Part shown: positions 21,811-63,502 of the stretch, piece after piece
How positions within the stretch are numbered: position 1 is the first letter of the stretch
How the letters are laid out: each line of letters begins with the position of its first letter
Origin: Neophaeotheca triangularis
Lineage: Eukaryota
Length of the DNA stretch: 64,000 nucleotides
Direction: 5' to 3'
Assembly (NCBI GenBank): GCA_054600435.1
Contig: BAAIJX010000008.1
Span: 186,001-250,000, forward strand
The notes under the pieces: model-generated
What the model was told of the DNA's origin: nothing
Databases searched by the model: none
What the model saw: only the letters and a program-made list of their open reading frames with translations
Made by a program: the position numbers and the translations under genes

Positions 21811-24487
21811 ATGGACTTCGTAAGCAATCGCACACGTATACGCCTCCTCCCTCCACCCTCACTGACGGCCTCAGTGGTCACGGCTGATTGGCGGCACCTA
21901 CGCTCCAAAGCGCACCCCCGTCGCACCCGCCAACGACCCCCAAGCCCGTCTCGCCCGATTCAAGCGCGTATACGGCAGCATTCAGCAAATATGTAACCGA
22001 CCGCGAAACCTCTCTACCGAGGGACCTCTGCTGGAGCAATTGTACGCCTACCTTGAACGCTTGGCGATACTCATCCGAGAGGAAGTAAGAGCTCCGATAC
22101 CGCATCTGTGCCTCCAATATGCCTCGAGCACGCAACTGTATGCTTTCGTTGCCAGAGCTGCCAAGGTCAGCCAGTATGAGCCGGTCGTGCAGGCTACAAT
22201 TTCCGTCTTTGCCGCCCTCGTCGACAGCGAAGAGGAAGACTTTCTGTCACAACCCATCTTTGGCAAAAGCCTCATGGATCTAGTCACGAGAGTGGTAGAC
22301 GGAGGAGCTGTGTTGCTCGGCATTGAGTCGGAAACTGCAATACTGGAGCTGCTCTTCACCATTGCGGCAAAGATACGGCTCCAACCAGAGATCCTCCCAG
22401 TATGGTTTACTTCCAAGGCCAAGCCTGAGCCGGAAGATGTTTTTGTCCAAGAGAAGCAGAAGTTCGTTGGCATCACGCAGAAAGAAGACTTCCCTCTATG
22501 CTATCTTCTCATTGATCGTGTTCACCACGAAGGGCGAATAGGGGATTTTGCCCGGACAGGTTTACTCTACATTTTCGAAGCGACTGGGCGCTCACCAAAC
22601 CTTGAAGAGTGGGTTGTAAGCTCTGATCTGCCTACTTTGATGGCGTCTGGTTTGGGAGCGCTCTATAGCCAGCTCAGTCGTGAGTTGAGCGTCTTGCACC
22701 CAGATGCCACGCTGCCGCCTGTTCTCGCTATGAGCGATTACAGCACGACACACGCTCGTGCCACGGCAGAGAGCGCATTTTCTGAGAGGCATCTGAGTCA
22801 TATGGTGACATTCTTATCATACTTGACATTTTGGCAAGATGTACTTGACCACTGCAAGTCTGTTGATGTCAAGCAGACTTTGCTCGACCATTTCCAAATC
22901 TTGTTCCTACAGCAACTACTCTACCCGTCTTTGCTACAGTCTAGCGATACCGACGGTGGAAGCTCTGTTGCAGTTCTCACGTACATCAGTACCGTCCTCG
23001 ATTCTTTAGATCACCAGGAGCTGCTCAAGATGATATTGTCTTACCTTCTCGCTATTCCTGACAAACCCGAAACTGCGATCTCTGAAGAGCCTTCCGGGGC
23101 CACACGCCCTTCCATGCCAGCAAGAAGCCCAACTGCGATGAAACGAAGGCAGAGCCTTATGCTGCTTGCCGCACACAAGGACCCTCAAGACATCATGGAG
23201 CCGACATTATTTAATCTGGTCGACCTCGTTCTGAACAGCGTCGGGTCGAGGAACAGCCAGACTGTATTTGTCGGGTTAAAACTCGTGTCTACCCTCTTGG
23301 CTCCGCAACAGAGGAAGCATGCTTTGGGAACGCTAGTGAAGACCGAGCATGTGCCGGACGAAAGACCGAATCGGACAGCCGGTGCGCTCGACATGGAGCT
23401 AGAACAATACGCCGATCTCGTTGCCGCTTTTGGCCGCCATCGTGGTGATGAGGATGCTTACGATGCGCTGTGTCAAGACATAAGGCAGAGCATCGAAGCG
23501 CAGATACCAGTCGAGCCTTCGAACACATTGAGGCATCCAATGCCCGGCCAATACCTGCTTCAGCCTCACGATAGCCTGACAGAATCCTTAAGAGCTACTC
23601 TGAGCACGTTTTGGTCCAATAGCATCGACGTCAACCTTGCCTTGACCCAAGCCATGATATCCATCGCCCTTTGTCTGGAACTACGCTTGGATAGCTGGCT
23701 TACTCTCGATCCGGCTAGCTATGCTTACGACGATGTCGACAATAATAGGCCTGAACGCTCGTGGCACGCGCATTTGGAAGACGAAGAAGCCACTGCATGG
23801 TCAGCTGCACAGGGAGCCTTGAAACGCCCCGTGTGGCCTGATATTGGCAGGCAGCCAGCAATTTTCACCACCCTTTCGAGCCTGGTAAAAGAGTACCACA
23901 CTGTACGGAACGCCGTGTCCAATTTCGACCACATGATCGCCGCCCGTAAAACGATGTTGCAAGCCGCTAGCATCGACGCACCATCTGACGACCTGGCTTC
24001 CGAAGAGAACAGCCCACAGGCTGATAGGCATCTGCAAAGTGCTCAAGGCAGCAAGTCCCGGGCTTCTGACAGTCGTAGCTTGAGTCAACAACACGTCACC
24101 AATCAGGTATCCAGTCCAGCGCCAGGCTCGCCCCACCCAAACGCCACCACGCAACACCAAGCATCCACCCGTTCCGATTCTACGATTGGTGCCACGTCAC
24201 GCAACCCTTCGACGAGCACAAAGGCAGCGGTACCACCTCTTTCGCAAATCTTCCAGCCGCCTCCGCCAGAAACGCCCAGTACTACTGACGTTTTGATGGA
24301 GCAGTTTGAGTTCGCAAGCGCGGCGTCACATGACGAGCAAAATGAAGCTGAGTCTGGAAAGCGCACCGCAAGCTTGAATCACGTTTTAACCAACGCCATC
24401 GTCTTGCAGGAGTTCATAATGGAGCTCATGGCGGTTTTGCAAGTTAGGGCCGCGGTGCTTGGAGAGAGGGAAGTGAGAGTTGCATAG
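21811..24487 (+). CDS. FHIP / RAI16-like (FAM160) protein; intron 21820-21874
   Basis: Spliced N-terminus MDF|WSRLIGG; HHEGRIGDFARTGLL and LMASGLGALYSQL motifs; C-terminal LTNAIVLQEFIMELMAVLQVRA. Confidence 0.9.
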
Positions 24488-51081: not shown

Positions 51082-52516
51082 TCATTCGCAACACCCCTTT
51101 CGCATCACTTTCGCAGCGTGGGACTCGTAGCGGGGTTCCCCAGCCACAAGATCATACCCAGGGGCTGTGCCGAGCCTCACCTTGGATTTCTCCGCCTCTT
51201 CCTTCCTCTTCTCCTCTGCTCGCTTCTCTTGCGCGAGCTTGAGCTTCGCTGCGATCAAGTCTCGCTCCTTCTTGCTGCGTCGGCCTGGGCCCTGTAAAGA
51301 TCGTCAGTACACCGTTGAACGTTTGAAACGAGCTGTTTCGCTTACCCTGGGCTTTGCGATGCCGCTTGGCAGTCTCTCCGCGGCACGAATAAACCGTGCA
51401 GGCTTCCTGGCCACCGGGGCGCGAGCGCTCTCGCCGTCGCTGGGCTCTGCAACGGCGGCGGGGGCGATGGGGGCGGGGGGTGTGGGAGCCGTGGCCTGAG
51501 GAGAAGTCTGGAGATTGCTAATGTCAGCTAAGCGCTCTAACATAGGCTCCCAAATCAACGTGATGACGGATATCCAAGCAGACTTACAGGTGGAGGCTCG
51601 TCGGCCTTAGCGCCTGCGGCGCTCTCCTCGCTCTTGAGAGCGGGAGAAGCGGGGGGAGAAAGCTTCGCGGGGAGGGGGTTGGCGAGACCACCCTCCGCCG
51701 TGGTAGGAGCGGAAGAAGGCGCGCTGGCCTCAGAGCCCTCGGCGCTATCTTGGCCTAGGGGGCTGGAGGGGGAGGGGGAGGTGACGGCGGCGGGATGGGG
51801 GCCAACGGTCCCTTCCTCAGGGCCCTCCAGCTGGCCCTGAGGGCTGGCCGCAGCCGACGGTGACGACTGGTAATCATTACTATTAGCAAATCTGCGCTGA
51901 CATCAAGTTTCTGTTGGCCGTTTAGAGGCTTCTGATCAGACTTACAGACGAGCGCGAGCTCGCTTCGGCGCTCAAGGCGCTATTCTGGCCCTGAGGGCAC
52001 AAGGAAGAGGGGGAAGAGGTGCCGTCGGCGGCCTCCGTGGTGAGATCCCCCTCGGGGGCGGAGACGACGGTCTTGGTGGCCTTAACGGCCGGAGAAGGGG
52101 GCTGAAATTTCACACGTTAGCTGAATGCTACGATACCGAGGTTTTTTGGGCGTTTGCAGGTGAAATGGGTAGCGGGGGGGGGGGGGTTACTTACGGCGGA
52201 GGTTGCCTCAGTCGCGCTGACCGAAGCGGCCTCGGCGGAGTCTTGCTCCTTGACCTCGCCGTCGGCGGCGGATGTTGCTGCCTGTGGCAGGCGTGCGGTG
52301 AGCTCACCCCTGGGGGTGGCGGAGGGTGGCTTGGTGGTGGTGGTGCCCGGGGGTGGAGTCTGGGGCACGGTTATCAATTATACGCTCGACCACCCAAAGT
52401 GTTGGCGATGTGGGAGGGCACATCGAGGCCCTACTTACAGATGGCGACGCCTCGATATCGTTCTCCTTGCTTCTCTCGGTGCGCTTCAAGTGGGCAAGGC
52501 TGCCAGGGGCTGGCAT
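51082..52516 (-). CDS. Multi-exon orphan gene encoding an Ala/Pro/Ser-rich protein with a basic C-terminus; 3' end uncertain
   Basis: Exons 52439-52516, 52195-52359, 51946-52101, 51588-51866, 51346-51507 and <=51291, bounded by GTAAG donors and branch/CAG acceptors, all in frame. Confidence 0.7.
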
Positions 52517-52923
52517 GCTGGGCGATGGCAATTCCAAGGTATGCGGTGGTGGGAGAAGAGCCCACTTAGAAGGATAAGAGTATACGAAACCAGGTATAAT
52601 GTCGCAGGTGAGATTTAGCCGAAGGTACACTTGGGAGAGTAGGGGGTCCAAGCGCAGGTGATGACGGCGGAAGTTCACGTGTCGAGGCCCAAGCTTTTTC
52701 TTGCTCAAGGTCTCCCACTTCCACACCCGTCTTCCTTCTTCCTCTTCCATCTCTGCAACAACACATCCACAACCACAACCACAAAACAACACGTCAAGGA
52801 AGACTTGTACTCATGCCATTGGCCCAGAGTACCATGGCACCGTTGGCCAAGAGCTTCCATCAGGTATTTCATCTTCACCTCACTTGCGTGCAAAATCGTT
52901 TTCCGCTAACAACATCTGCCAGA

Positions 52924-53299
52924 TTCACGTCGCAGCCACAGCAGAGAGCATACCATAGCAGAGGAGCATCCGATTGGCCGCATTGAGCAACAATACACAC
53001 CTTGGTCATGTCAAGGGTGCACGAGGCGAAGTTTCAAACTTGCTGCCAAGGCACAGTGGGCTAGCTCTTTGCGTTGCTGGTGCAGCGTATTATTTCCTTG
53101 CGAGGCTTACTGCTCTGCCAGCGGCAGTCCCGAGCGGTTCCCTCCGTGAAAGAAACGTTGTGTGGTTCAAATCCACCTTCTTACGGTTGCTTGGGCAGTA
53201 CTTGCTCGACCAGTGAGCTTCCCTTGGACTGTTCGAAGATTCGGCGCGGGTTGTCGAGCGTGCCTCTGCTTGGGGCTTTCAAAAGCTTCGACGCGTGAA
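52924..53299 (+). ncRNA. Structured repeat unit 1 (long closing stem plus T-loop hairpin)
   Basis: TTCACG/CGTGAA, GAGAGC/GCTTTC and AGCAGAGG(52957-64)/CCTCTGCT(53263-70); GTGG-TTCAAAT-CCAC at 53162-76. Confidence 0.6.
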
Positions 53300-53358
53300 A
53301 GGTATGTCTCAAACGACACTGTCAGGGGTCTTACAAGGCTATGTCTACCCCCGACAAA

Positions 53359-53642
53359 CTGCAAGCAGCTACGGCAGAGAGCGTATACAGCAGTTGTCTC
53401 GCAGGGCCGCGCCTGGCGAATAGCACCCTCAAATACACAGATAGGCCGAGGGCACGTGGCTAGTCAGGAGGCGTTGCTGGTGCGGTTAAACCCAACCACC
53501 GGGCCATCAGTCTGACTGATCGCAGCCTGGGGGTAGAAATGCCGCTGGGTTCAAACCCCAACACCCGTTCTACACTTCGGTCGAAGCGGGGACATCGGCG
53601 TCCTGCCAGCACTGCTGTTGCGCTTTCAGAGGCTGCTTGCAG
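53359..53642 (+). ncRNA. Structured repeat unit 2
   Basis: CTGCAAGCAGCT/GGCTGCTTGCAG, GAGAGCG/CGCTTTC, CAGCAGT/ACTGCTG and GCAGGG/TCCTGC; TGGG-TTCAAAC-CCCA at 53546-60. Confidence 0.7.
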
Positions 53643-53668
53643 CCCTTTCCTAAATCTAATCTTCAATA

Positions 53669-53934
53669 CAGGCAGCTACGGCAGAGAGCGCATCAGCATT
53701 GACTCCCAGGGCCACGCCTGGAGAATACCATCCCTCGTTTCATAGATGGCAATGGGATTCCAGGGCTATCCAGGTCGTGTTCCCGGCACGGTGGATGGAA
53801 TGACCAAAGGCTATGCCAAATCTCGATCAAACACCGTAGGGTTCGAATCCCTCGAACTCTTATACACTTCGGTCGAATGATGGAGACCGGCGTCCTGGTC
53901 GAGCTCTGCTTTTTGCGCTTTCATTGGCTGCTTG
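53669..53934 (+). ncRNA. Structured repeat unit 3
   Basis: CAGGCAGCT/GGCTGCTTG, GAGAGCGCA/TGCGCTTTC and CCAGGG/TCCTGG; AGGG-TTCGAAT-CCCT at 53838-52. Confidence 0.65.
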
Positions 53935-53968
53935 CAGGTCTTTTTCAAGATCGAGTATTCGATACAGA

Positions 53969-54268
53969 CTTGCAGCATAGTCACGACAGACGACACATCA
54001 CGGAGGTGCAGCTTCAGGGCCGCGCCTGGCGAATAGCACCCTCAAATACACAGATGGGCCGAGGGCACGTGGCTAGTCAGGAGGCGTTGCTGGTGCGGTA
54101 CGGACCTAACCACCGGGCCATCAGTCTCAGAGTCTGACTGATCGCAGCCTGGGGGTAGAAATGCCGCTGGGTTCAAACCCCAACACCCGTTCTACACTTC
54201 GGTCGAAGCGGGGAAATCGGCGTCCTGACCTGCCCTCCGCTGATGTGTTGTCCTTCCTTGCTTGCAAG
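53969..54268 (+). ncRNA. Structured repeat unit 4; interior nearly identical to unit 2
   Basis: GACGACACATCA(53989-54000)/TGATGTGTTGTC(54241-52), CGGAGG/CCTCCG and TCAGGG/TCCTGA; T-loop hairpin at 54168-82. Confidence 0.7.
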
Positions 54269-54556
54269 CCGTATCACCACCAGGGTGCCGCAGCCTGGTG
54301 GTTGGGATGTCTATGCTGGGGAAATGATTAGTTGGAATAGAACCTGCTGTCACTTGAGACCTTTGCAACTGTATAGTCAGGGGTCTCTTGCTGGCAGTGA
54401 GGGACACCATATGAATCCTCAAAAAGCATACGACATTCTCAACGGGTGGCGGAGGAGGGTCTTGGTCCAAGGTGGGACCAACTTCAGATGGTAAGTGACA
54501 CCCGCGCCTGGTGCATAGGACGATAATTTACATGAGCGTTCCGCAGGTACTACTCG

Positions 54557-55405
54557 CTACCGAACATCGATCTTAGTGCCCATCCAGCTCGCCCCCGCCG
54601 CCTCCTTCAACCAGTTCACCTCGACGGGCTCAACATGCGCTCGAACATACTCAAGCAGATCCTGGACGCCGTTGTCCTCCCAATCCTCCCCATCGCCGAC
54701 CAACAGCGCAAACAAGCTCACTCGCGACGATCCACCGAGCGCCCCCGCCACCCGCTCCTCTGCAGCAGGGTCAAGCAAGCACAGTCTAGTAGCGGGAAGA
54801 TCTGGATGAGCAACGGAGGCTGTGGAACACATGGCGGGAAGATGTGAATACAAGAGATCGTCAAGAGGTCGAAGCAGAAACACCACGGCTATGTGCTCTG
54901 AAGCAGGAGGTTTCGAGGGATTGGCAAAAGAGTCGGACAAGAAACTCTCGGGTCTGGAAGCTGAGGAGAGAGCTTCAAGATGGCGGGTTACGCTGTTGAA
55001 GCCAACGAGGAGGCGTTTCTGAATTGGGGGCGTTGGTGGCGTAGAGTTGGGAGATAGTGCCGTATTCGTTTGGTCATCGTGCAGACCAACAGCTCTCTTC
55101 CGTTTCGTGCCCTTCTTTCCCTTGGATGCAAAGGCTTGCTGCCGATGAGCGCCAACTGGTTCCAGCACACTTGGCGACATTAGCAAAGACTGTGCACGTT
55201 ATGTTTGTGGCCATAGTCTGTCATCCTACCCAACTAGCTTTTCTACGAGTATATCATGTTGAGGCTGACCGAGGACTTTGCTGTGCGGTATCAGCGCGCT
55301 GGAAAGTCTCATATGTATTGATGCCTAGGCGCACGAGTCGGTCTTTGAATAGGGCGTATCGGTTCTAACGACAGGCCTTGGCGTTTTCTTCTTTGCTGTG
55401 GCCAT
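54557..55405 (-). CDS. POP3: RNase P/MRP subunit Pop3 (L7Ae-like), two 5' introns
   Basis: Spliced N-terminus MATAKKKTPRPVVRTDTPY; VLEPVGAHR, LLVGFNSVTRHLE, LYSHLP and VRAHVEPVEVNWL motifs. Confidence 0.82.
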
Positions 55406-55550: not shown

Positions 55551-55585
55551 TGAGGTGAGGTGAGGTGAGGTGAGGTGAGGTGAGG
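55551..55585. repeat. (TGAGG)n pentanucleotide repeat
   Basis: 7 tandem copies. Confidence 0.9.
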
Positions 55586-56254
55586 TTATGTGAGGTTGAC
55601 GATGCAGTGCCAAGGCTTCCTTATCGATTAGCAAAAGAACTGTACTTACGGTACTAGTAGTTAAGGTACGTTATTAGTATCCACTAGCTCGGCCAGCGAA
55701 CCTAAATCATCGACACGTCAAATTATATCACCGAAAGAAAGACGCGTTTAGCTAAGCCTTGTCCTCACGCGCAAAAGCACAAAGCAGCAGCACCTCATCT
55801 TTCTCGGGAGTCTGGCGTTTTCATCTGAAGTCCCGTCCGTCCGTCCCTCCCTGTTCGTCGCGTCGCGCTTACTCATCAGCGCTCGGCTGGTGCCTTGGAC
55901 AAGGATTGGAAGACCTGAGGCAACCAAGCAACCAACCCGGATGCTGCATGCACTTTCAGAGTTCCAACCTGCCCTGCCCTGCCTCAAGCTCCCGTCACAG
56001 GAAACAATCTTAACGCCATGACAGCAACACTACTACTACCTTGACCAAAGTCACCACCTGCGGTCAAACTTGCAAGACTCTTGCTACTTCTCATACCACC
56101 TCAGTAACTAACTCTTCACTCTCTGGAGCTCTTGCGCTTTCTTTCACCTTCCATACCACCTGCCAACGCACCCAGATCATGAAGCCTCGATCTTGATTGC
56201 CACTACTACTACTACTACTACCCTTACTACTACTACTGGTAACCGCAACGCAAA

Positions 56255-59200
56255 ATGGCGCCTGCTAGTCCGTTTGCGAAGCAGCTGGACCCCGGCCCTC
56301 GCTCCTTGCCAACACGCGATCATGCAGACCCCGACGCTGACACCTCTCCTGCGCGCAAGAAAATGCGCTTGAGTGAAGAGGCCGACGACAACACCGCCTC
56401 GGACAACACTGCACAAATCAATGACATGTCAAACGTTGCTACGTCAGTATCCCCTTCACCCTTCTTTGCGCTTGGCCTGCCAGAACCTTTTCTTACTGCC
56501 ACTTCACTTTACGACCCATGGCAGTGTTTAAAATCTTCAAACCCTCTCTCTAACTACGAGTTGGCAAACAGTGGCTCATCTCCGGAAAGCGCCATCACAA
56601 TCGCCATGGACAACCCATACAGCGGCTCATTCCGAGAAAGCGCCCTTCTTCCGCCTCTTGACGAATACCGTCAAGTATTTCTCGCCCGAGACCCCCTACA
56701 CCCCCAAATCTTCGACCTTTTCCTCGAATGGCTCGAAACTCACCTCAGCGAATCCAGCAGTGACAACTCGGTCCAACGACTTGCGCGATACAGCGCCGAC
56801 GTCCCTTTCTTCAACACACTCGGAGACACACTCAAAGCTTTGCTGAATCGCAATACGCTGTTTGACCTGCGCCCGGATCAGCAGCGGTCAGTACGGCTGA
56901 GGATGTTCGAAATTTACGAGCACGTGGCAAAGCTTTGCCTTCAACTTCTGCCGTTGCTACCTGGCAGCCTTGAAGGTGCTCTGTCCCGCCGCGATTCCGC
57001 ACAGCCGTCCCCCAAAGCTCCACAAGACGTTCCACTCTTCGGGTACATCGATCTCCTAGCGAACCTGTTCCGTCCCAGTCTGCGAACTACAAAATGCCTC
57101 TTGCGGGACTATGACCTGAACTTCGACGTCCTTGAATCCAAGATGAGAAAGGAAATGGTTCACAATCAAGATTTGTTCCAGACATTGACCAAAATCGTGG
57201 CCATCATCTCCGCGAAGCCATCGATAATAAAAGGTGCATGGACCGCCTTAACGTCTGGACTTACAATCCTCTTCCGATACCCATCATGGCTTGCTACGGA
57301 TGGGAACAACGAAATCGCCACGGACGAGGTCGAGGAGCTCATTCAACTTAGCCTCTCGCAAGTCCTCCCTGCCGTCTGCCGCGAGAAACCTAGCTCGTTT
57401 TCCAACGAACTGCTACTTCTCTGTGCGGATGGGCTTTCGGTATTTTTCGCCGATCATTGCGATGGGGTTGATTTGGACACAGCATTGGCGCTCTACTCCT
57501 GCTACGCGCGCGCTTCTGGAGACCACGTCCTGTTGGGAGAGAAGGCAGGCGAAGGCACCGAAAATGCACTTCGCGAGCTGTGCGGCGATGACGCCCAGGT
57601 GGTGCTCCACATGCTTCGAGTTGCTTGGACGATGCAAGCCTGCAAAAGCTATCTGCAAAGTGATTTCATGGTGACAAGGACTTTTGGCATGAAAAGAATG
57701 AGCGAAGAGCTGGTGGCTGTATTCCACGAGTGCGCAGGTAAGCCTGCCGGAACCGGATTACACCCAGTTCTCCATTACCTGGTCCAGTTTCTTCGTTGCA
57801 ACGACCTCATCGGCTACATCTTCAGCGCCAAGTCGCACGCCAACCTGGTCAGCCTTAGCGTCGACACAGTAGGATTCCTCGCCGCAACGTCGCACTATTC
57901 GAACCAAGATACCGACGCCATATGGCAAGCTTGCACTACTAGTGTCGAAGCGGAATTTGTCCAGGCCTCGATCAAAGTTCTTATGGCCACATCCCGCTAC
58001 CTCGATGTAGAGCAGGCCTTACACCTTGCGGCCAAATACATCGGCATACCCCTCCACAGTCTTGACAAAACTCTCGTGGCGTTATTGCCCAACCTCTACC
58101 AATCCATATGGAATGGCTCGGAGCGTTCGGGTGGCGCCATCGCCGAACGAAGTGTACTGGTTCCGACTGAGATTGCGAGAGCAGTTGGAGCGCGCAACAC
58201 GTTCGAAGAGAGCTCCAGTGCGAATGTGATTCTTGATTCTTCTCTGCAATACCTGTCACGATACACAGCTTCAAGGTACACCCAAGACGACCGCAAAGTC
58301 ATCTACGAGAGATGTGCTGCGGACATCATCGGCAAGACGAGAGAAGCGTCGAACAGCGTCCGAATCGTGGCGAAGCTATTCGCTCAGTGCCAGGATCCCG
58401 TTGTGTTGGACCTGCTCCCTCCCCGAAGCGTAGTAGAAGAATTCTGCCACTTTGTCGACGGGTTTCGAAGTCACGAAAGCGTTGTTGTGCAGAATGCATG
58501 TTTGCATCGGCTTCGTCTCATCCTCTACCTCATCAATACCGGCCCGAAAGACGAAGGCAAGGAAGAGAGTTGGTCATTGCTATGGGACTATGCGATTGGG
58601 CCTCAAGCACTCAATGGTGCCTGCCGGGACGCCGCTTGGATTATCCTGCTCGAGGCTTCCGCCAACGATGACCTACTGCGTGCGTGTCTGACGACTTACG
58701 TTCCGACTCTGTCAAGTCAATACGTCACTCCGAGGCTTCTGGATCTGCTTGAAAACAGTCTTAAGAAGCAAATTGTATCGGAATGCACCAACGACTTCGG
58801 CAACACCTTACGACTTCCACAATGGTCACAACTGAGCCGGATCGTCACAGAGGCCCCTATGCAGAACATCAGCGCCAGGGCCGCGCGCATCATGAACAAC
58901 GCAATGTACGAGTTTCCCCTGACTTTGGACAACTTCGAAGCGATCAAAGGTTCCGTGATGGAATGCCAAGTCGCTGCAGTTCGCACGGAAGTGGACAAGC
59001 TCACGGGACTCAAAAGCTTCCCAGAGTTTTTCCGCCACATGACAGCGCTCAAGGGAATGCTATCGTTGAGCATGAGTACACGAAACATGTACGATGAGCA
59101 ATCCGCTACGCCTCACAGTATCATCCTCAATGATTACGACAAGGATTCAGAAGATGCCTTCGAGGTTCAACTCGGCATGCAAGGGCGACGCGAAAACATG

Positions 59201-62200
59201 GTGGTTTTGGCGGGCAGCAGTTCCCGTCTCTGTGACCTCCACGAGGTACTCAGAGCTCGGTTCGGTATTGAATGCAAGGTCTTCGTGGGCGAACAAAACG
59301 TCGATCTTACCTCCGAGAGTCCGTTGGCAGACGCTGGGCTGAGGATGTCAGATGCTCTCACGATCCAACCTGTGCTGGCACTGGATGACGATCCCGATGG
59401 TCTATTCGCCTCAAAGACACCAGTTGAGCGAGAGCTATCCGACCAGTATGACAGACTACAGACGCACCTCGATTCCAGCGACGAAGAAATCGCTAGGGAG
59501 ACGCTTGACTTTCTCGGGAGATTACGACCTTCGCCATCCCCTAGGCATCAAATCCTGGCTACCGACAAGTCTCCTGAAAGCATGGTGCCACGGGATCGGA
59601 CCTACCGGACAGCACATACCTTCGTACTGATGGGCCGGCATCTGGAACTACTCGGCCAATCGGGGGCTTCGGACATGTGCTTCAAAGCCAAGGCGCTTCA
59701 ATTGATACTCTTGTTCCTTTCGGAGCCGGCAGGCTACAGCGAGACTTTGATTGTGCGAGCCATACTTGCGCTCCAAGGATGTCTAGATGCGGAGAGCAAT
59801 GAGCTGGCCATCCTATCGCACGTCGAACAGTCAACGTCCTTCGTACGTTGCCTGATATCCACCTTGCAGACAGCGCTTGATCGACCCGCAAGCAAAGCAA
59901 GGGGCAAGCTTCTATTCGAAGCGTACCATACTCTACTCCTTGCTTGCGAGCTACACGTGGAAGTCTGGAACGCCTTCATCCAACGTACAGATGGCGGTCT
60001 TGTTCAGACGAGGCTTCTGCTTGACCTCGACAAGAAGGCTGCTGAGCTTGCTGGCCTACGGTTAAACGCCTTCTATACGAACCAGGAATCTGACCCTAGC
60101 AATCACCGTAGTGCCGCAGTCTGGCAAATGCTCATTCATCATCTTCCAAAAGCTCTGCGGTGCAGCGATACTGCCGAAGATTACTACAAAATCCTCGGCG
60201 ACCTCGCGAGCAAACAAGAGTTCTTGACTTCCAACGAGGACGAGGTTCGAGATCTGATCGATTCGCTGCGGTCGAAGCTGTTCGGCATGACGCATAGCGA
60301 AACTCCGGAAGCGCCGTTTCCAGACAGCAGAATCCGCGGGCTTATGAATATCTTGCTTCAAGCCGTCGCCATCCTGGAGACATTCGGAACGCCAATAGCC
60401 TTGCAAGAACTCTCACAGGAGCTCTTTGTTCACTTGCTGTGGCCGAAGATCGATGATCAGGCGAATCGACCTTTGATGGCACCCGAATCGCGACAAATGG
60501 CTCTTGAGCTGGTCAAGAAGACCTGTCACGGGCATGAGGCTCACTTGAATTTGGTCGAAGTCTTCCAGTCAGCTATCGACGAGATCTCCAGCAGCGAGCA
60601 GCGACGTTGGCTGGGAAGGCAGGAGTGGATCCGGTCGCCATCCAGTAATTGCGGGCTGTCAAACCTGGGACAGACTTGCTACATGAACTCGCTGTTGCAG
60701 CAGCTCTTCGGCAATGTTGGATTGCGTGAGCTCATCCTGAATACGCAGGTGGACGACAACCCGCAGCATGCCGTTCTGCGGGCGACCCAGGAGCTCTTTG
60801 CCGAGATGCAGGATTCGATCGTTCCGTGGTCTAACACAGAACCCCTCGCAAGACTTCTGAGCATCCAGTGGGACACGCAAGAAGACGTCCACACTTTCCA
60901 CTCGCTATTCATGACGCAATTGGAAGACAGCATGCCGGATGCGGATACCAAGTCTAAGTTCAGGGGTTTCTTCAACGGCAAAGCTTTATCGCAAATCCGA
61001 GGAGCTTGCGGTCATGTCTCTGAAACCGCCGAAGCTTTCGGAGATCTCTCAGTCGTCGTCAAGAACAAGGCCAATCTCCACGACTCAGTGGACGAGTTCA
61101 TGCAGGGCGAGCCAATGGCTGGCGACAACCAGTACAAGTGCTACACATGCGATGAAGCCAATGGGACTTTCGTCGATGCAATGAAACGCAATTGCCTCGC
61201 CGAAATACCAGACAACCTCGCTGTCTGTCTCAAGCGTTTCCAGTTCGACGACTACGGCAATAATACCAAGCTCAACGATCGTTTCGAGTTCCCGGAGGAT
61301 ATCGACATGTCAATTTACAAAAAGTCTCACCTTATGAGCCCGGGACAGCCGCACCCCACAGACTTGTTCCGGCTAGTGGGTGTCATCGTTCATCTCGGGT
61401 CGCTCGACTATGGTCACTACTGGTCGTACGTTCGCCTTCGAGGCACCCCCTCGCACCTCGCAGACCGATGGGTTCGCCTCGAAGACCGTCTTGCGTCGCA
61501 TTCCTCCTTCCAGGAAGTGCAAGCGCAATGCTTTGGCGACGGCACTGGCACAGACAGCGCCTATGTGCTGTTTTACCAGCGCATTTCCTCCATCGAGGAT
61601 GACCGCGAGCTTACGGTTGAGCCATCCACGGGTGGTCTCGCACCTCCTCGTGTCCGAGTCTTGCCCGACATTGCCGAACGAATCGCTTCACACAATCGCT
61701 GGCGGCAACGCATCGCTCAATTCCATGAGCCTGCGACGGTGGAATTCCTACACTTCCTGCTGCAAAGCCTGGACAGCGAGCCAGTCTCGTCGGAAGAGAA
61801 CTCTGCTCTCCAGAGCCAGATTGCGCGTATCACGACGACCTACATCATGCATGTGCAATTTGGCAATTGTCTTTACGCTGACGCAAAGCCAATTTTCGAG
61901 GCGATCACGGCTCGGGCCACCTTGAACCCCCTGTTCGCGCACCACATTATCCAGTCTGTGAAACAAGGGGACATTGATATGTCCCGTATCCTAAACTTCG
62001 ACAACTACGCGGTTCGGGAGCTTGTCTACAGCTTGCTACTCACTTGTTTGGATGCGGTACGTCAGCACTCTCCCAATCTGTACGGTTTCGACAACGTTAG
62101 CGGCGTTTCCCGGCTTCTTGGCGACGGCGACTTCGGCTCCATTGTGAAAGCGCACATCTCGAGCTTCCACGTGCTTAAGCGAATGCCTTTCTGGAAATAC

Positions 62201-63502
62201 TACTTTGGGTTCGCCGGCCGCTTAGCAAAGCTCGGAGTGAATGAGACCGCCGTCCTCCTTGATCATGACCTGTTGAGGCAATGTTTCGATCTACTGTACA
62301 CGCCATATTCCTCCTCGCTGAAGGCCGAGTACAGCGAGCTTCACAGCTATATTCAAGACAAAAGAGACAACTTGGAAGCCGTCTACGACTTTCTGGCACT
62401 CATTCTAGGCTCCCACGTGAATCTTACCAATGTTAGCACCGGTGAAGTAACTCCGGACGATGAGTTGCACATCGTTGGCCCAGATGGTTGTCTTCTGCGT
62501 CTGGCTGAACTCAATCCCTTGATCGAAATCCACAGCTTCTCTAAACCCTTTCGCCAGGAGATCATTCTCATTTCCAGGGGTTTGACCGCGTGCAGAGAGA
62601 AGATGTATTGGCAAGATTACTCTCCCGGCAAACTGATTGGCGTCCTGACGCAACTTCACGTTGACCATGCCATACGTACTCTCATGATGCAGGGCATCGT
62701 AGAACGCTACAAGAACTGGACCAACAACCTGGCACCGCTTCTGCAGTACACTCTTCACTATTGCAAAGCCAATGGGGACGATCAGAGCACTCAGATGCTG
62801 CTTGTCGAGCTGTCGAAAGAGATTGTAGCCTGGCCCAGCTACGAACCAGAGATGCTCACTTTCGCCGAGAAAGCCGTCGTGCTCGCACCTTGCAGCACGT
62901 TGTCGGCTTTCCAAATACTTTTGCTTGATCTCTTAAACCCCGCGAAAAGCAGAATCCCTCTCCGTCGCAGAGCAGAGAATTGGTACAAGCAGCATGTCTT
63001 CGATCCACCGACAATTAACCTTCCACCGACGGCAGCCACTGGCCCTCGTGCGGACGACGACAGTGTCGCCAGCGCTCCTCCTGTAGTAGGAACCCCATTC
63101 GACGTCAGCAGGATCCGGATTACAAGGTACCTCGTCGACAAATGCGCCACGCTGCTCACCAGCGCGCATCGCCAACGTTACGCTTCCAGAGACAAGTGGG
63201 ACCAGATGATCAACGCCATGCAAGAAGCCAAGAGCTACCTGGACCGCCTGAGCGCCGACAGGAAAACCAAACTCGTCTCGGGCGTGCAGCCATGCATGGG
63301 CCTCGTCGCAGAATCCAACGAAGCGTCGGGGACTTTGGTCAATCTCAACCGCCTTCTGGCTTCCCTGCGCAACTGGCAGCCTAACGATGACGACGAGACG
63401 CTTGCGTACGGCCTCCCTGTTGATGCTGTGTTGGAGACGGTTGAGTCGGATGATGACTCTCTTGCTTCCGACGAGACGGAGTATACTGATGAGCCCCTTT
63501 GA
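56255..63502 (+). CDS. Large USP-family ubiquitin carboxyl-terminal hydrolase (USP34/USP9/24-like)
   Basis: 2415 aa; Cys box GLSNLGQTCYMNSLLQQL, His box GVIVHLGSLDYGHYWSY and AYVLFYQR. Confidence 0.93.
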   Translation: MAPASPFAKQLDPGPRSLPTRDHADPDADTSPARKKMRLSEEADDNTASDNTAQINDMSNVATSVSPSPFFALGLPEPFLTATSLYDPWQCLKSSNPLSNYELANSGSSPESAITIAMDNPYSGSFRESALLPPLDEYRQVFLARDPLHPQIFDLFLEWLETHLSESSSDNSVQRLARYSADVPFFNTLGDTLKALLNRNTLFDLRPDQQRSVRLRMFEIYEHVAKLCLQLLPLLPGSLEGALSRRDSAQPSPKAPQDVPLFGYIDLLANLFRPSLRTTKCLLRDYDLNFDVLESKMRKEMVHNQDLFQTLTKIVAIISAKPSIIKGAWTALTSGLTILFRYPSWLATDGNNEIATDEVEELIQLSLSQVLPAVCREKPSSFSNELLLLCADGLSVFFADHCDGVDLDTALALYSCYARASGDHVLLGEKAGEGTENALRELCGDDAQVVLHMLRVAWTMQACKSYLQSDFMVTRTFGMKRMSEELVAVFHECAGKPAGTGLHPVLHYLVQFLRCNDLIGYIFSAKSHANLVSLSVDTVGFLAATSHYSNQDTDAIWQACTTSVEAEFVQASIKVLMATSRYLDVEQALHLAAKYIGIPLHSLDKTLVALLPNLYQSIWNGSERSGGAIAERSVLVPTEIARAVGARNTFEESSSANVILDSSLQYLSRYTASRYTQDDRKVIYERCAADIIGKTREASNSVRIVAKLFAQCQDPVVLDLLPPRSVVEEFCHFVDGFRSHESVVVQNACLHRLRLILYLINTGPKDEGKEESWSLLWDYAIGPQALNGACRDAAWIILLEASANDDLLRACLTTYVPTLSSQYVTPRLLDLLENSLKKQIVSECTNDFGNTLRLPQWSQLSRIVTEAPMQNISARAARIMNNAMYEFPLTLDNFEAIKGSVMECQVAAVRTEVDKLTGLKSFPEFFRHMTALKGMLSLSMSTRNMYDEQSATPHSIILNDYDKDSEDAFEVQLGMQGRRENMVVLAGSSSRLCDLHEVLRARFGIECKVFVGEQNVDLTSESPLADAGLRMSDALTIQPVLALDDDPDGLFASKTPVERELSDQYDRLQTHLDSSDEEIARETLDFLGRLRPSPSPRHQILATDKSPESMVPRDRTYRTAHTFVLMGRHLELLGQSGASDMCFKAKALQLILLFLSEPAGYSETLIVRAILALQGCLDAESNELAILSHVEQSTSFVRCLISTLQTALDRPASKARGKLLFEAYHTLLLACELHVEVWNAFIQRTDGGLVQTRLLLDLDKKAAELAGLRLNAFYTNQESDPSNHRSAAVWQMLIHHLPKALRCSDTAEDYYKILGDLASKQEFLTSNEDEVRDLIDSLRSKLFGMTHSETPEAPFPDSRIRGLMNILLQAVAILETFGTPIALQELSQELFVHLLWPKIDDQANRPLMAPESRQMALELVKKTCHGHEAHLNLVEVFQSAIDEISSSEQRRWLGRQEWIRSPSSNCGLSNLGQTCYMNSLLQQLFGNVGLRELILNTQVDDNPQHAVLRATQELFAEMQDSIVPWSNTEPLARLLSIQWDTQEDVHTFHSLFMTQLEDSMPDADTKSKFRGFFNGKALSQIRGACGHVSETAEAFGDLSVVVKNKANLHDSVDEFMQGEPMAGDNQYKCYTCDEANGTFVDAMKRNCLAEIPDNLAVCLKRFQFDDYGNNTKLNDRFEFPEDIDMSIYKKSHLMSPGQPHPTDLFRLVGVIVHLGSLDYGHYWSYVRLRGTPSHLADRWVRLEDRLASHSSFQEVQAQCFGDGTGTDSAYVLFYQRISSIEDDRELTVEPSTGGLAPPRVRVLPDIAERIASHNRWRQRIAQFHEPATVEFLHFLLQSLDSEPVSSEENSALQSQIARITTTYIMHVQFGNCLYADAKPIFEAITARATLNPLFAHHIIQSVKQGDIDMSRILNFDNYAVRELVYSLLLTCLDAVRQHSPNLYGFDNVSGVSRLLGDGDFGSIVKAHISSFHVLKRMPFWKYYFGFAGRLAKLGVNETAVLLDHDLLRQCFDLLYTPYSSSLKAEYSELHSYIQDKRDNLEAVYDFLALILGSHVNLTNVSTGEVTPDDELHIVGPDGCLLRLAELNPLIEIHSFSKPFRQEIILISRGLTACREKMYWQDYSPGKLIGVLTQLHVDHAIRTLMMQGIVERYKNWTNNLAPLLQYTLHYCKANGDDQSTQMLLVELSKEIVAWPSYEPEMLTFAEKAVVLAPCSTLSAFQILLLDLLNPAKSRIPLRRRAENWYKQHVFDPPTINLPPTAATGPRADDDSVASAPPVVGTPFDVSRIRITRYLVDKCATLLTSAHRQRYASRDKWDQMINAMQEAKSYLDRLSADRKTKLVSGVQPCMGLVAESNEASGTLVNLNRLLASLRNWQPNDDDETLAYGLPVDAVLETVESDDDSLASDETEYTDEPL

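Follow-up and report, generated by a model that had tools for sequence, protein, structure and literature searches.

What kind of genetic element is formed by tandem repeat units that can have near-identical cores but enclose them in different, still self-complementary arms? The question is raised by a locus in the genome of Neophaeotheca triangularis, located in a stretch of 64 kb that was analysed as a whole and is termed the window throughout. An original prediction, which compared two of the units (units 2 and 4), proposed a constant scaffold from which each copy would release a different guide, and named gene conversion of the core as an alternative. Here, we compare all units of the array and weigh the readings of the locus that follow from their sequence and predicted fold. 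Our preferred explanation, to which we give about an even chance of being correct, is a tandem array of paralogous structured non-coding RNA genes, in which stems close or process the units and recombination has taken place between copies.

Organisation and genomic setting of the array

The array comprises three good units and a decayed one, each approximately 290-385 nt in length, arranged head to tail and separated by spacers of 10-20 nt (table 1). Searches of the 64-kb window with nhmmer recover units 2, 3 and 4 at E-values of 1e-80 to 1e-96, unit 1 being a marginal match, and reveal no further copy of the repeat in the window beyond the array. Each unit is built from a core and two flanking arms, the distance from arm to arm being 204 nt in unit 2, 191 nt in unit 3 and 213 nt in unit 4; a variable extension within the core is shorter in unit 3.

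The GC content is approximately 54% throughout the window, which has the appearance of nuclear DNA from a filamentous ascomycete. The array fills a gap of 1.75 kb between the 5′ end of an intron-rich gene and the 3′ end of a Pop3-like gene, both of which are encoded on the minus strand. The intron-rich gene has several CTTAC sites on the plus strand, equivalent to GTAAG on the minus strand; its frame at 52304-52810, the single frame scanned, has no match in Pfam. Since the 5′ end of this gene lies some 150-200 nt from unit 1, it may have a divergent promoter region in common with the array. A peptide pattern from the Pop3-like neighbour occurs in 323 stretches of metagenome contigs, none of which is a relative.

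The ubiquitin hydrolase encoded further downstream has its best non-self relatives in Dothideomycetes of the Mycosphaerellales/Capnodiales type. Identity to these relatives is 45-48% in the catalytic region, and the nearest named ones (Meristemomyces, Lecanosticta, Zymoseptoria, Pseudocercospora and Cladosporium) share 43-48% identity across residues 1400-1850; since they are no closer than this, the host appears from protein comparison to represent an isolated, poorly sampled lineage of Dothideomycetes among the collections searched.

Table 1. Coordinates of the array units, their parts and neighbouring features in the window.
Feature	Position	Strand	Details
RAI16-like gene	21866-24487	+	
Mitochondrial ribosomal protein L46 gene	49804-51025	+	
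Intron-rich low-complexity gene	51100-52760	-	Pro/Ser/Ala-rich protein, Lys/Glu-rich C-terminal exon
Unit 1, degenerate/diverged copy	52924-53308	+	nhmmer E 0.015 over 52932-53174
Unit 1 arms	5′ ~52924-52968, 3′ ~53258-53308	+	own pairing -38.4 kcal/mol
Unit 1 junction domain	53073-53215	+	T-loop-like hairpin 53162-53176
Unit 2 (nhmmer extent)	53355-53652	+	
Unit 2 5′ arm, closing stem	53359-53401	+	pairs with 53606-53645, -47.2 kcal/mol
Unit 2 core	53402-53605	+	P1 (CAGGGC/GCGUCCUG), domain A, four-helix junction domain B
Unit 2 domain B	T-loop-like hairpin 53546-53560; invariant block 53571-53585	+	invariant block TACACTTCGGTCGAA
Unit 2 3′ arm	53606-53645	+	resembles unit 3 3′ arm, z 9.8
Unit 3 (nhmmer extent)	53662-53948	+	
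Unit 3 5′ arm	53666-53706	+	pairs with 53898-53940, -37.1 kcal/mol
Unit 3 core	53707-53897	+	T-loop-like hairpin 53838-53852; invariant block 53863-53877
Unit 3 3′ arm	53898-53940	+	five-T run at 53909-53913
Unit 4 (nhmmer extent)	53966-54272	+	
Unit 4 5′ arm, diverged arm type	53969-54014	+	pairs with 54228-54268, -47.8 kcal/mol
Unit 4 core	54015-54227	+	T-loop-like hairpin 54168-54182; invariant block 54193-54207
Unit 4 3′ arm	54228-54268	+	
Weak Pop3-like frame	54557-55198	-	E 0.007, below Pfam cut-off
Microsatellite	55551-55596		(TGAGG) x 9.2
Ubiquitin hydrolase frame (UCH + DUF3517)	56243-63502	+	2419 residues, intron-free

Comparison of cores and arms

The cores of units 2 and 4 are near-identical, as the original prediction had noted: 198 of 204 aligned bases agree in an alignment of the three good units, which places nine gap columns between them. 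Identity is 99% over 85 nt (53402-53486 versus 54015-54099), 96% in a short central segment (53490-53513 versus 54104-54127) and 99% over the last 97 nt (53509-53605 versus 54131-54227). The differences were said to lie mainly in hairpin loops, and two loops do account for most of them (ATCAGTC-T-GACTGAT versus ATCAGTC-TCAGAGTCT-GACTGAT, and GGTTAAACC versus GGTACGGACC), with three more substitutions outside both. The core of unit 3 is 63-65% identical to those of units 2 and 4. A signature of repeat-induced C-to-T mutation was rejected, the spectrum of substitutions between cores being mixed (37 transitions, 32 transversions).

The arms of units 2 and 4 had been described as unrelated, which holds for the 5′ arms (z 1.2; 156 of 1000 shuffles score as well) but not entirely for the 3′ arms, where a marginal likeness is seen (z 3.0; 7 of 1000 shuffles). 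What was overlooked is the likeness between the arms of units 2 and 3, which are close at both ends (5′ z 10.2, 3′ z 9.8; 0 of 1000 shuffles in either case), the outer arms being 78% and 92% identical. The affinity of unit 2 thus changes along its length. Among informative sites in the arms, 25 join unit 2 to unit 3 to the exclusion of unit 4 and 10 join it to unit 4 to the exclusion of unit 3, versus 0 and 64, respectively, in the core (Fisher's exact p ~1e-15 for the contrast). Since these counts fit no single tree, unit 2 is, judged from its sequence, a recombinant in which arms of the unit 3 type enclose a core of the unit 4 type.

The switch points fall at approximately 53400-53409 and 53595-53618. 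These positions lie in or adjoin two blocks conserved across units 2-4, CAGGGCC.CGCCTGG and CGGCGTCCTG, from which helix P1 is formed. Where diverged repeats recombine or convert one another, the tracts should stop at conserved blocks, and the position of the switch points at such blocks therefore supports gene conversion. The alignment indicates that units 2 and 4 owe the identity of their cores to unequal exchange or gene conversion, the breakpoints of which lie within the conserved P1 blocks. The alternative named in the original prediction is thereby favoured, and we hold this mosaic part of the explanation with considerable confidence, much more firmly than any role of the stems in processing. 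The proposal that the scaffold is constant and the guide duplex changes from copy to copy does not fit, given that unit 3 combines unit-2-type arms with a strongly diverged core. On the aligned sequences, the scaffold is not constant across the array and the arms are not unit-specific. A pattern of 'same core, different paired arms' is by itself no indicator of a guide-RNA cassette; unit 3 reveals recombination instead.

All four pairs of arms can form a stem, as had been predicted for units 2 and 4, and when the 3′ arm is shuffled 500 times, none of the shuffles reaches the energy of the native duplex (table 1) in units 2, 3 and 4, and one does in unit 1. The arms of unit 1 do constitute a third sequence, as was also proposed, yet this unit is a degenerate copy. 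The 5′ arm of unit 4 pairs with the 3′ arms of other units at background level only (-22.5 to -24.8 kcal/mol), and neither unit 4 nor unit 1 arms cross-pair with those of other units, which leaves three arm types that do not cross-pair (unit 1, units 2 and 3, and unit 4). The arms of units 2 and 3 also pair between units because their sequence is common to both: the 5′ arm of unit 2 forms a duplex of -47.2 kcal/mol with the 3′ arm of unit 3, and the 5′ arm of unit 3 one of -38.6 kcal/mol with the 3′ arm of unit 2. Such pairing is predicted to compete with the stems formed within units. The 3′ arm of unit 2, the spacer and the 5′ arm of unit 3 (53615-53698) can form an inter-unit hairpin, for which Rfam returns a chance-level match to a miRNA precursor (E 1.7).

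Targets of the guides originally envisaged were sought with arm 20-mers in the 64-kb window, and matches were at chance level, like those of shuffled arms, save for one 16-nt identity. None of the arms has an antisense target in the window, which is weak evidence given that the window spans only 64 kb. The 16-nt exact identity (ACGGCAGAGAGCGCAT) lies between the 5′ arm of unit 3 (53678-53693) and the RAI16-like gene (22763-22778); the arm of unit 2 differs from it by one mismatch, and nhmmer scores the match at E 0.6. Approximately 0.01 exact 16-mers would be expected, by a rough estimate based on some 250 arm positions and 128 kb. The match is in the coding (sense) strand and therefore offers no obvious target site; it could be due to chance or be a trace of the origin of the arm.

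Predicted fold and relation to known RNA classes

When folded as plus-strand RNA and compared with dinucleotide shuffles, units 2, 3 and 4 give z-scores of -3.9, -3.95 and -4.25, respectively; the fold of unit 1 as a whole is no better than its shuffles (z 0.15). The consensus fold of units 2-4 contains 86 pairs in 12 helices, among them two arm helices (13 and 16 pairs) and P1 (7 pairs), the remainder making up domains A and B. The 5′ and 3′ arms form a long, imperfect closing stem of approximately 36-45 bp around the core of 191-213 nt. Domain A is a hairpin domain with a conserved symmetric 5x5 internal loop (GAAUA/GGCUA). Domain B is a four-helix junction composed of S1, S2 with its extension of variable length, a UUCRAAY hairpin and a UACACUUCGGUCGAA hairpin. 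The UUCRAAY hairpin, which consists of 4 bp and a 7-nt loop, is T-loop-like and occurs in every unit, and the UACACUUCGGUCGAA block, which forms the UUCG hairpin, is identical across the three good units. In unit 1, S1, S2 and the T hairpin still form, with changed pairs.

Standard pairs occupy 92.4% of the paired cells in units 2-4. Double changes are present in 17 pairs, compared with 6.1 +/- 1.9 in column shuffles (0 of 500 as high) and 0-4 in controls where the partners were slid by 1-3 columns. They are located in arm helix 2, where they affect 6 of 16 pairs, as well as in core helices 4, 5, 6, 8, 11 and 12; helix 11, the stem of the T hairpin, is kept through a UA-to-AU double change. 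The set that covaries comprises three to four paralogues of a single locus, which are tied together by gene conversion and do not represent independent lineages, and because of this the changes provide good evidence for a pairing constraint on the modelled helices, short of statistical proof. In these models, the array looks like a real structured RNA.

This RNA is likely to be read from the plus strand, since three predicted features point that way: the consensus (alifold) energy is -83.8 kcal/mol on the plus strand versus -71.9 kcal/mol on the minus strand, and both the UUCRAAY T-loop and the cUUCGg tetraloop motif are found on the plus strand only. The minus-strand fold of unit 4 is slightly better (z -5.3 versus -4.25).

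Rfam searches of 8 kb gave no match at E up to 1, and those of the 951-nt array gave six at E 1.6-6.6, all far under the gathering scores. A two-block pattern built from the T-loop and UUCG hairpins had no match in metagenome contigs, prokaryote genomes or viral contigs, and a similar pattern built from the P1 blocks had none in viral contigs. Five matches of the latter in GC-rich actinobacteria were rejected as chance (nhmmer E 0.19 or worse), since the ends of the pattern match and nothing between them does. An open frame that covers unit 3 and extends into unit 4, when translated, yielded 34 candidates from a protein collection, none at E 0.01 or better. Full-text searches of the published literature yielded no description of such an array. 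Of two fungal structured-RNA surveys, the main text of PMC5640933 makes no mention of tandem, tRNA-like, T-loop or UUCG, and that of PMC8216456 describes 17 fungal structures of 48-343 nt, mostly single-copy, and nowhere uses the word 'tandem'. By the searches made and Rfam alone, the array appears to be lineage-restricted and is a candidate new family without known relatives.

The established classes of small structured RNA were considered in turn. Like the T arm (B box) of tRNA, the 4-bp UUCRAAY hairpin fits the motif GGTTCRAAYCC and is located in a four-helix junction, and exact copies of this motif occur once in each of the four units and nowhere else in the 64-kb window. Unlike tRNA, the units have no cloverleaf and a different order of helices. 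ARAGORN at its default setting predicts no tRNA or tmRNA gene in 64 kb, its calls at thresholds of 70-80% are scattered, inconsistent and of low score, and the Rfam tRNA model has no match at E up to 10; tRNA and tmRNA were therefore rejected. Box C/D snoRNA was rejected as well, with the C box (RTGATGA) found in none of the four units on either strand; a match to Rfam snoZ39 is at chance level (E 5; 17 bits versus a gathering score of 39). A box H/ACA snoRNA, also rejected, has open ends and two hairpins linked by an H box, with ACA 3 nt from its 3′ end, whereas the 5′ and 3′ ends of the units pair in a long stem; no Rfam match supports this class, and the candidate ACA of unit 2 (GGGGACAUCGG) is replaced by AAA in unit 4 and by GAC in unit 3. 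Hammerhead ribozymes were rejected on the absence of CUGANGA from both strands of all four units, and no self-cleaving ribozyme family in Rfam matches at E up to 10. A T-run terminator is present in none of the units except unit 3.

Explanations for the array

Under the preferred explanation, a tandem family of structured RNA genes, the units would probably be co-transcribed from the region beside the divergent minus-strand gene, because spacers of 10-20 nt are too short for separate promoters. The conserved core, with its invariant unpaired blocks and T-loop module, would be the functional part, either as the active RNA or as a protein-binding platform. The role of the arms would be to close the unit or to allow its processing: their stem might block exonucleases at the ends of the unit or be cut by a double-strand-specific nuclease that frees each unit. 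Selection would then act on pairing alone and not on sequence, so that the arms could drift fast yet still pair. A processing role for the arms is a tentative suggestion from comparison with known systems, possible but not probable.

Among these systems are the bacterial 16S and 23S rRNAs, whose processing stems are substrates of RNase III, and the polycistronic snoRNA precursors of yeast, which are cut by Rnt1, an enzyme that in budding yeast uses AGNN tetraloops. In the array, as in these RNAs, a long duplex of the two flanks encloses a conserved structured RNA, with compensatory changes; short spacers separate several units in head-to-tail order, and it is the pairing of the stem that is conserved and not its sequence. 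Unlike Rnt1 substrates, the stems of the array are closed by the core and not by AGNN tetraloops, and unlike the processing-stem examples, the core matches no rRNA, snoRNA or other Rfam family. Tandem units of approximately 300 nt, each of which folds back on itself, are also found in retrozyme and satellite-type precursors of circular RNA. Unlike those repeats, the array has no hammerhead core or Rfam ribozyme family, and its units are far too diverged to have been copied from a single replicating RNA.

If the stems rather than the cores were the product, a Dicer-type enzyme would cut the 36-45 bp stem to give a unit-specific duplex of 20-25 nt, with the core as a recognition scaffold. The imperfect stems of the array could be cut by such an enzyme, as in fungal mi/milRNA precursors; their length accommodates one Dicer-sized duplex, and they pair far above chance and come in the three arm types described above, and a long double-stranded stem in a fungus competent for RNA interference would likely yield some small RNAs. 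Units 2 and 3, however, have nearly the same arms around different cores and therefore do not provide one guide per scaffold, and the core, with covarying helices of its own and invariant unpaired blocks, exceeds the needs of a loop. The lack of an antisense target in the window counts weakly against this reading. The geometry is also unfavourable to a guide cassette: 191-213 nt of conserved, branched RNA lie between the arms, whereas the duplex strands of well-supported fungal mi/milRNA hairpins lie less than 20 nt apart (PMC9757828). The array thus lacks the small loop of a fungal mi/milRNA hairpin precursor, and we consider a dedicated small-RNA precursor quite unlikely.

The repeats might instead act at the level of DNA and have no function as RNA, either as a tandem non-autonomous transposon with terminal inverted repeats (TIRs) or as a cluster of B-box-like sites bound by TFIIIC that forms a chromatin boundary. 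Clusters of B boxes act as boundaries in yeasts, and the GGTTCRAAYCC matches of the array are spaced approximately 300-380 bp apart. Every unit ends in inverted repeats, and correlated change of two inverted ends is possible in DNA too, as in transposons, whose terminal inverted repeats co-vary because the same protein binds both. Covariation is nevertheless seen in internal core helices (4, 5, 6, 8, 11 and 12) that are not inverted ends, and old copies, at 53-65% identity, still fold. The head-to-tail order with spacers of 10-20 nt also speaks against a DNA-level repeat. For a TIR transposon in particular, direct repeats (target-site duplications) are absent from the borders of the units, the 64-kb window holds no copy outside the array, and unit 4 does not have the same ends as units 2 and 3. 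A DNA-level repeat is, on balance, unlikely. Even less can be said for intron zipping, in which the stem would bring together the ends of an intron holding the unit and only complementarity would matter. Unit 2 is bracketed by AAG/GTATGT (slash marking the junction; 53302), a branch-like CTAAT (53656) and a CAG ending (53671), and unit 1 is preceded by an intron-like stretch of 60 nt (52863-52922; GTATTT, CTAAC at 52906 and CAG at 52922). These plus-strand signals are likely due to chance, because units 3 and 4 have no equivalent: neither has a comparable 5′ splice-site motif, only four such motifs are present in 52700-54600, and hexamers of this kind are expected by chance at about the observed density. 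Zipping would also leave the conserved, covarying core unexplained, and we regard it as extremely improbable.

A reading that unites two of the above is a dual-output precursor, an undescribed family of eukaryotic RNA in which cutting of the long, fast-evolving stems would give both a core particle and a small-RNA duplex. The particle would consist of the core of approximately 200 nt with its T-loop module and invariant UUCG hairpin, and the sequence of the duplex would vary by arm type. Such a precursor would have no described counterpart in fungi, and we judge it highly unlikely. The tandem array of structured RNA genes that we prefer would, if expressed, add a new family of structured RNAs from a part of the Dothideomycetes that is poorly sampled, and compensatory changes among its old paralogues already back the fold. 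It would equally offer a small-scale example of a mosaic tandem RNA gene family, in which stems drift under a constraint on pairing only and conversion homogenizes the cores.

Further elements are present downstream of unit 4. Eight nucleotides past its 3′ arm, positions 54276-54302 form a perfect 9-bp hairpin (ACCACCAGG, loop GTGCCGCAG, CCTGGTGGT), which may be an end-of-array element. The 3′ half of this hairpin and the bases that follow (54293-54306) are 93% complementary to 53491-53504 in the core of unit 2. Two stretches, 54502-54532 and 54289-54309, are similar to blocks of the core: CCGCGCCTGGTGCATAGG... is 74% similar to the 5′ block of the core (nhmmer E 3.6) and CGCAGCCTGGTGGTTGGGATG is 81% similar to 53521-53541. 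These core-like stretches could be what is left of a fifth unit, or could have arisen by chance.
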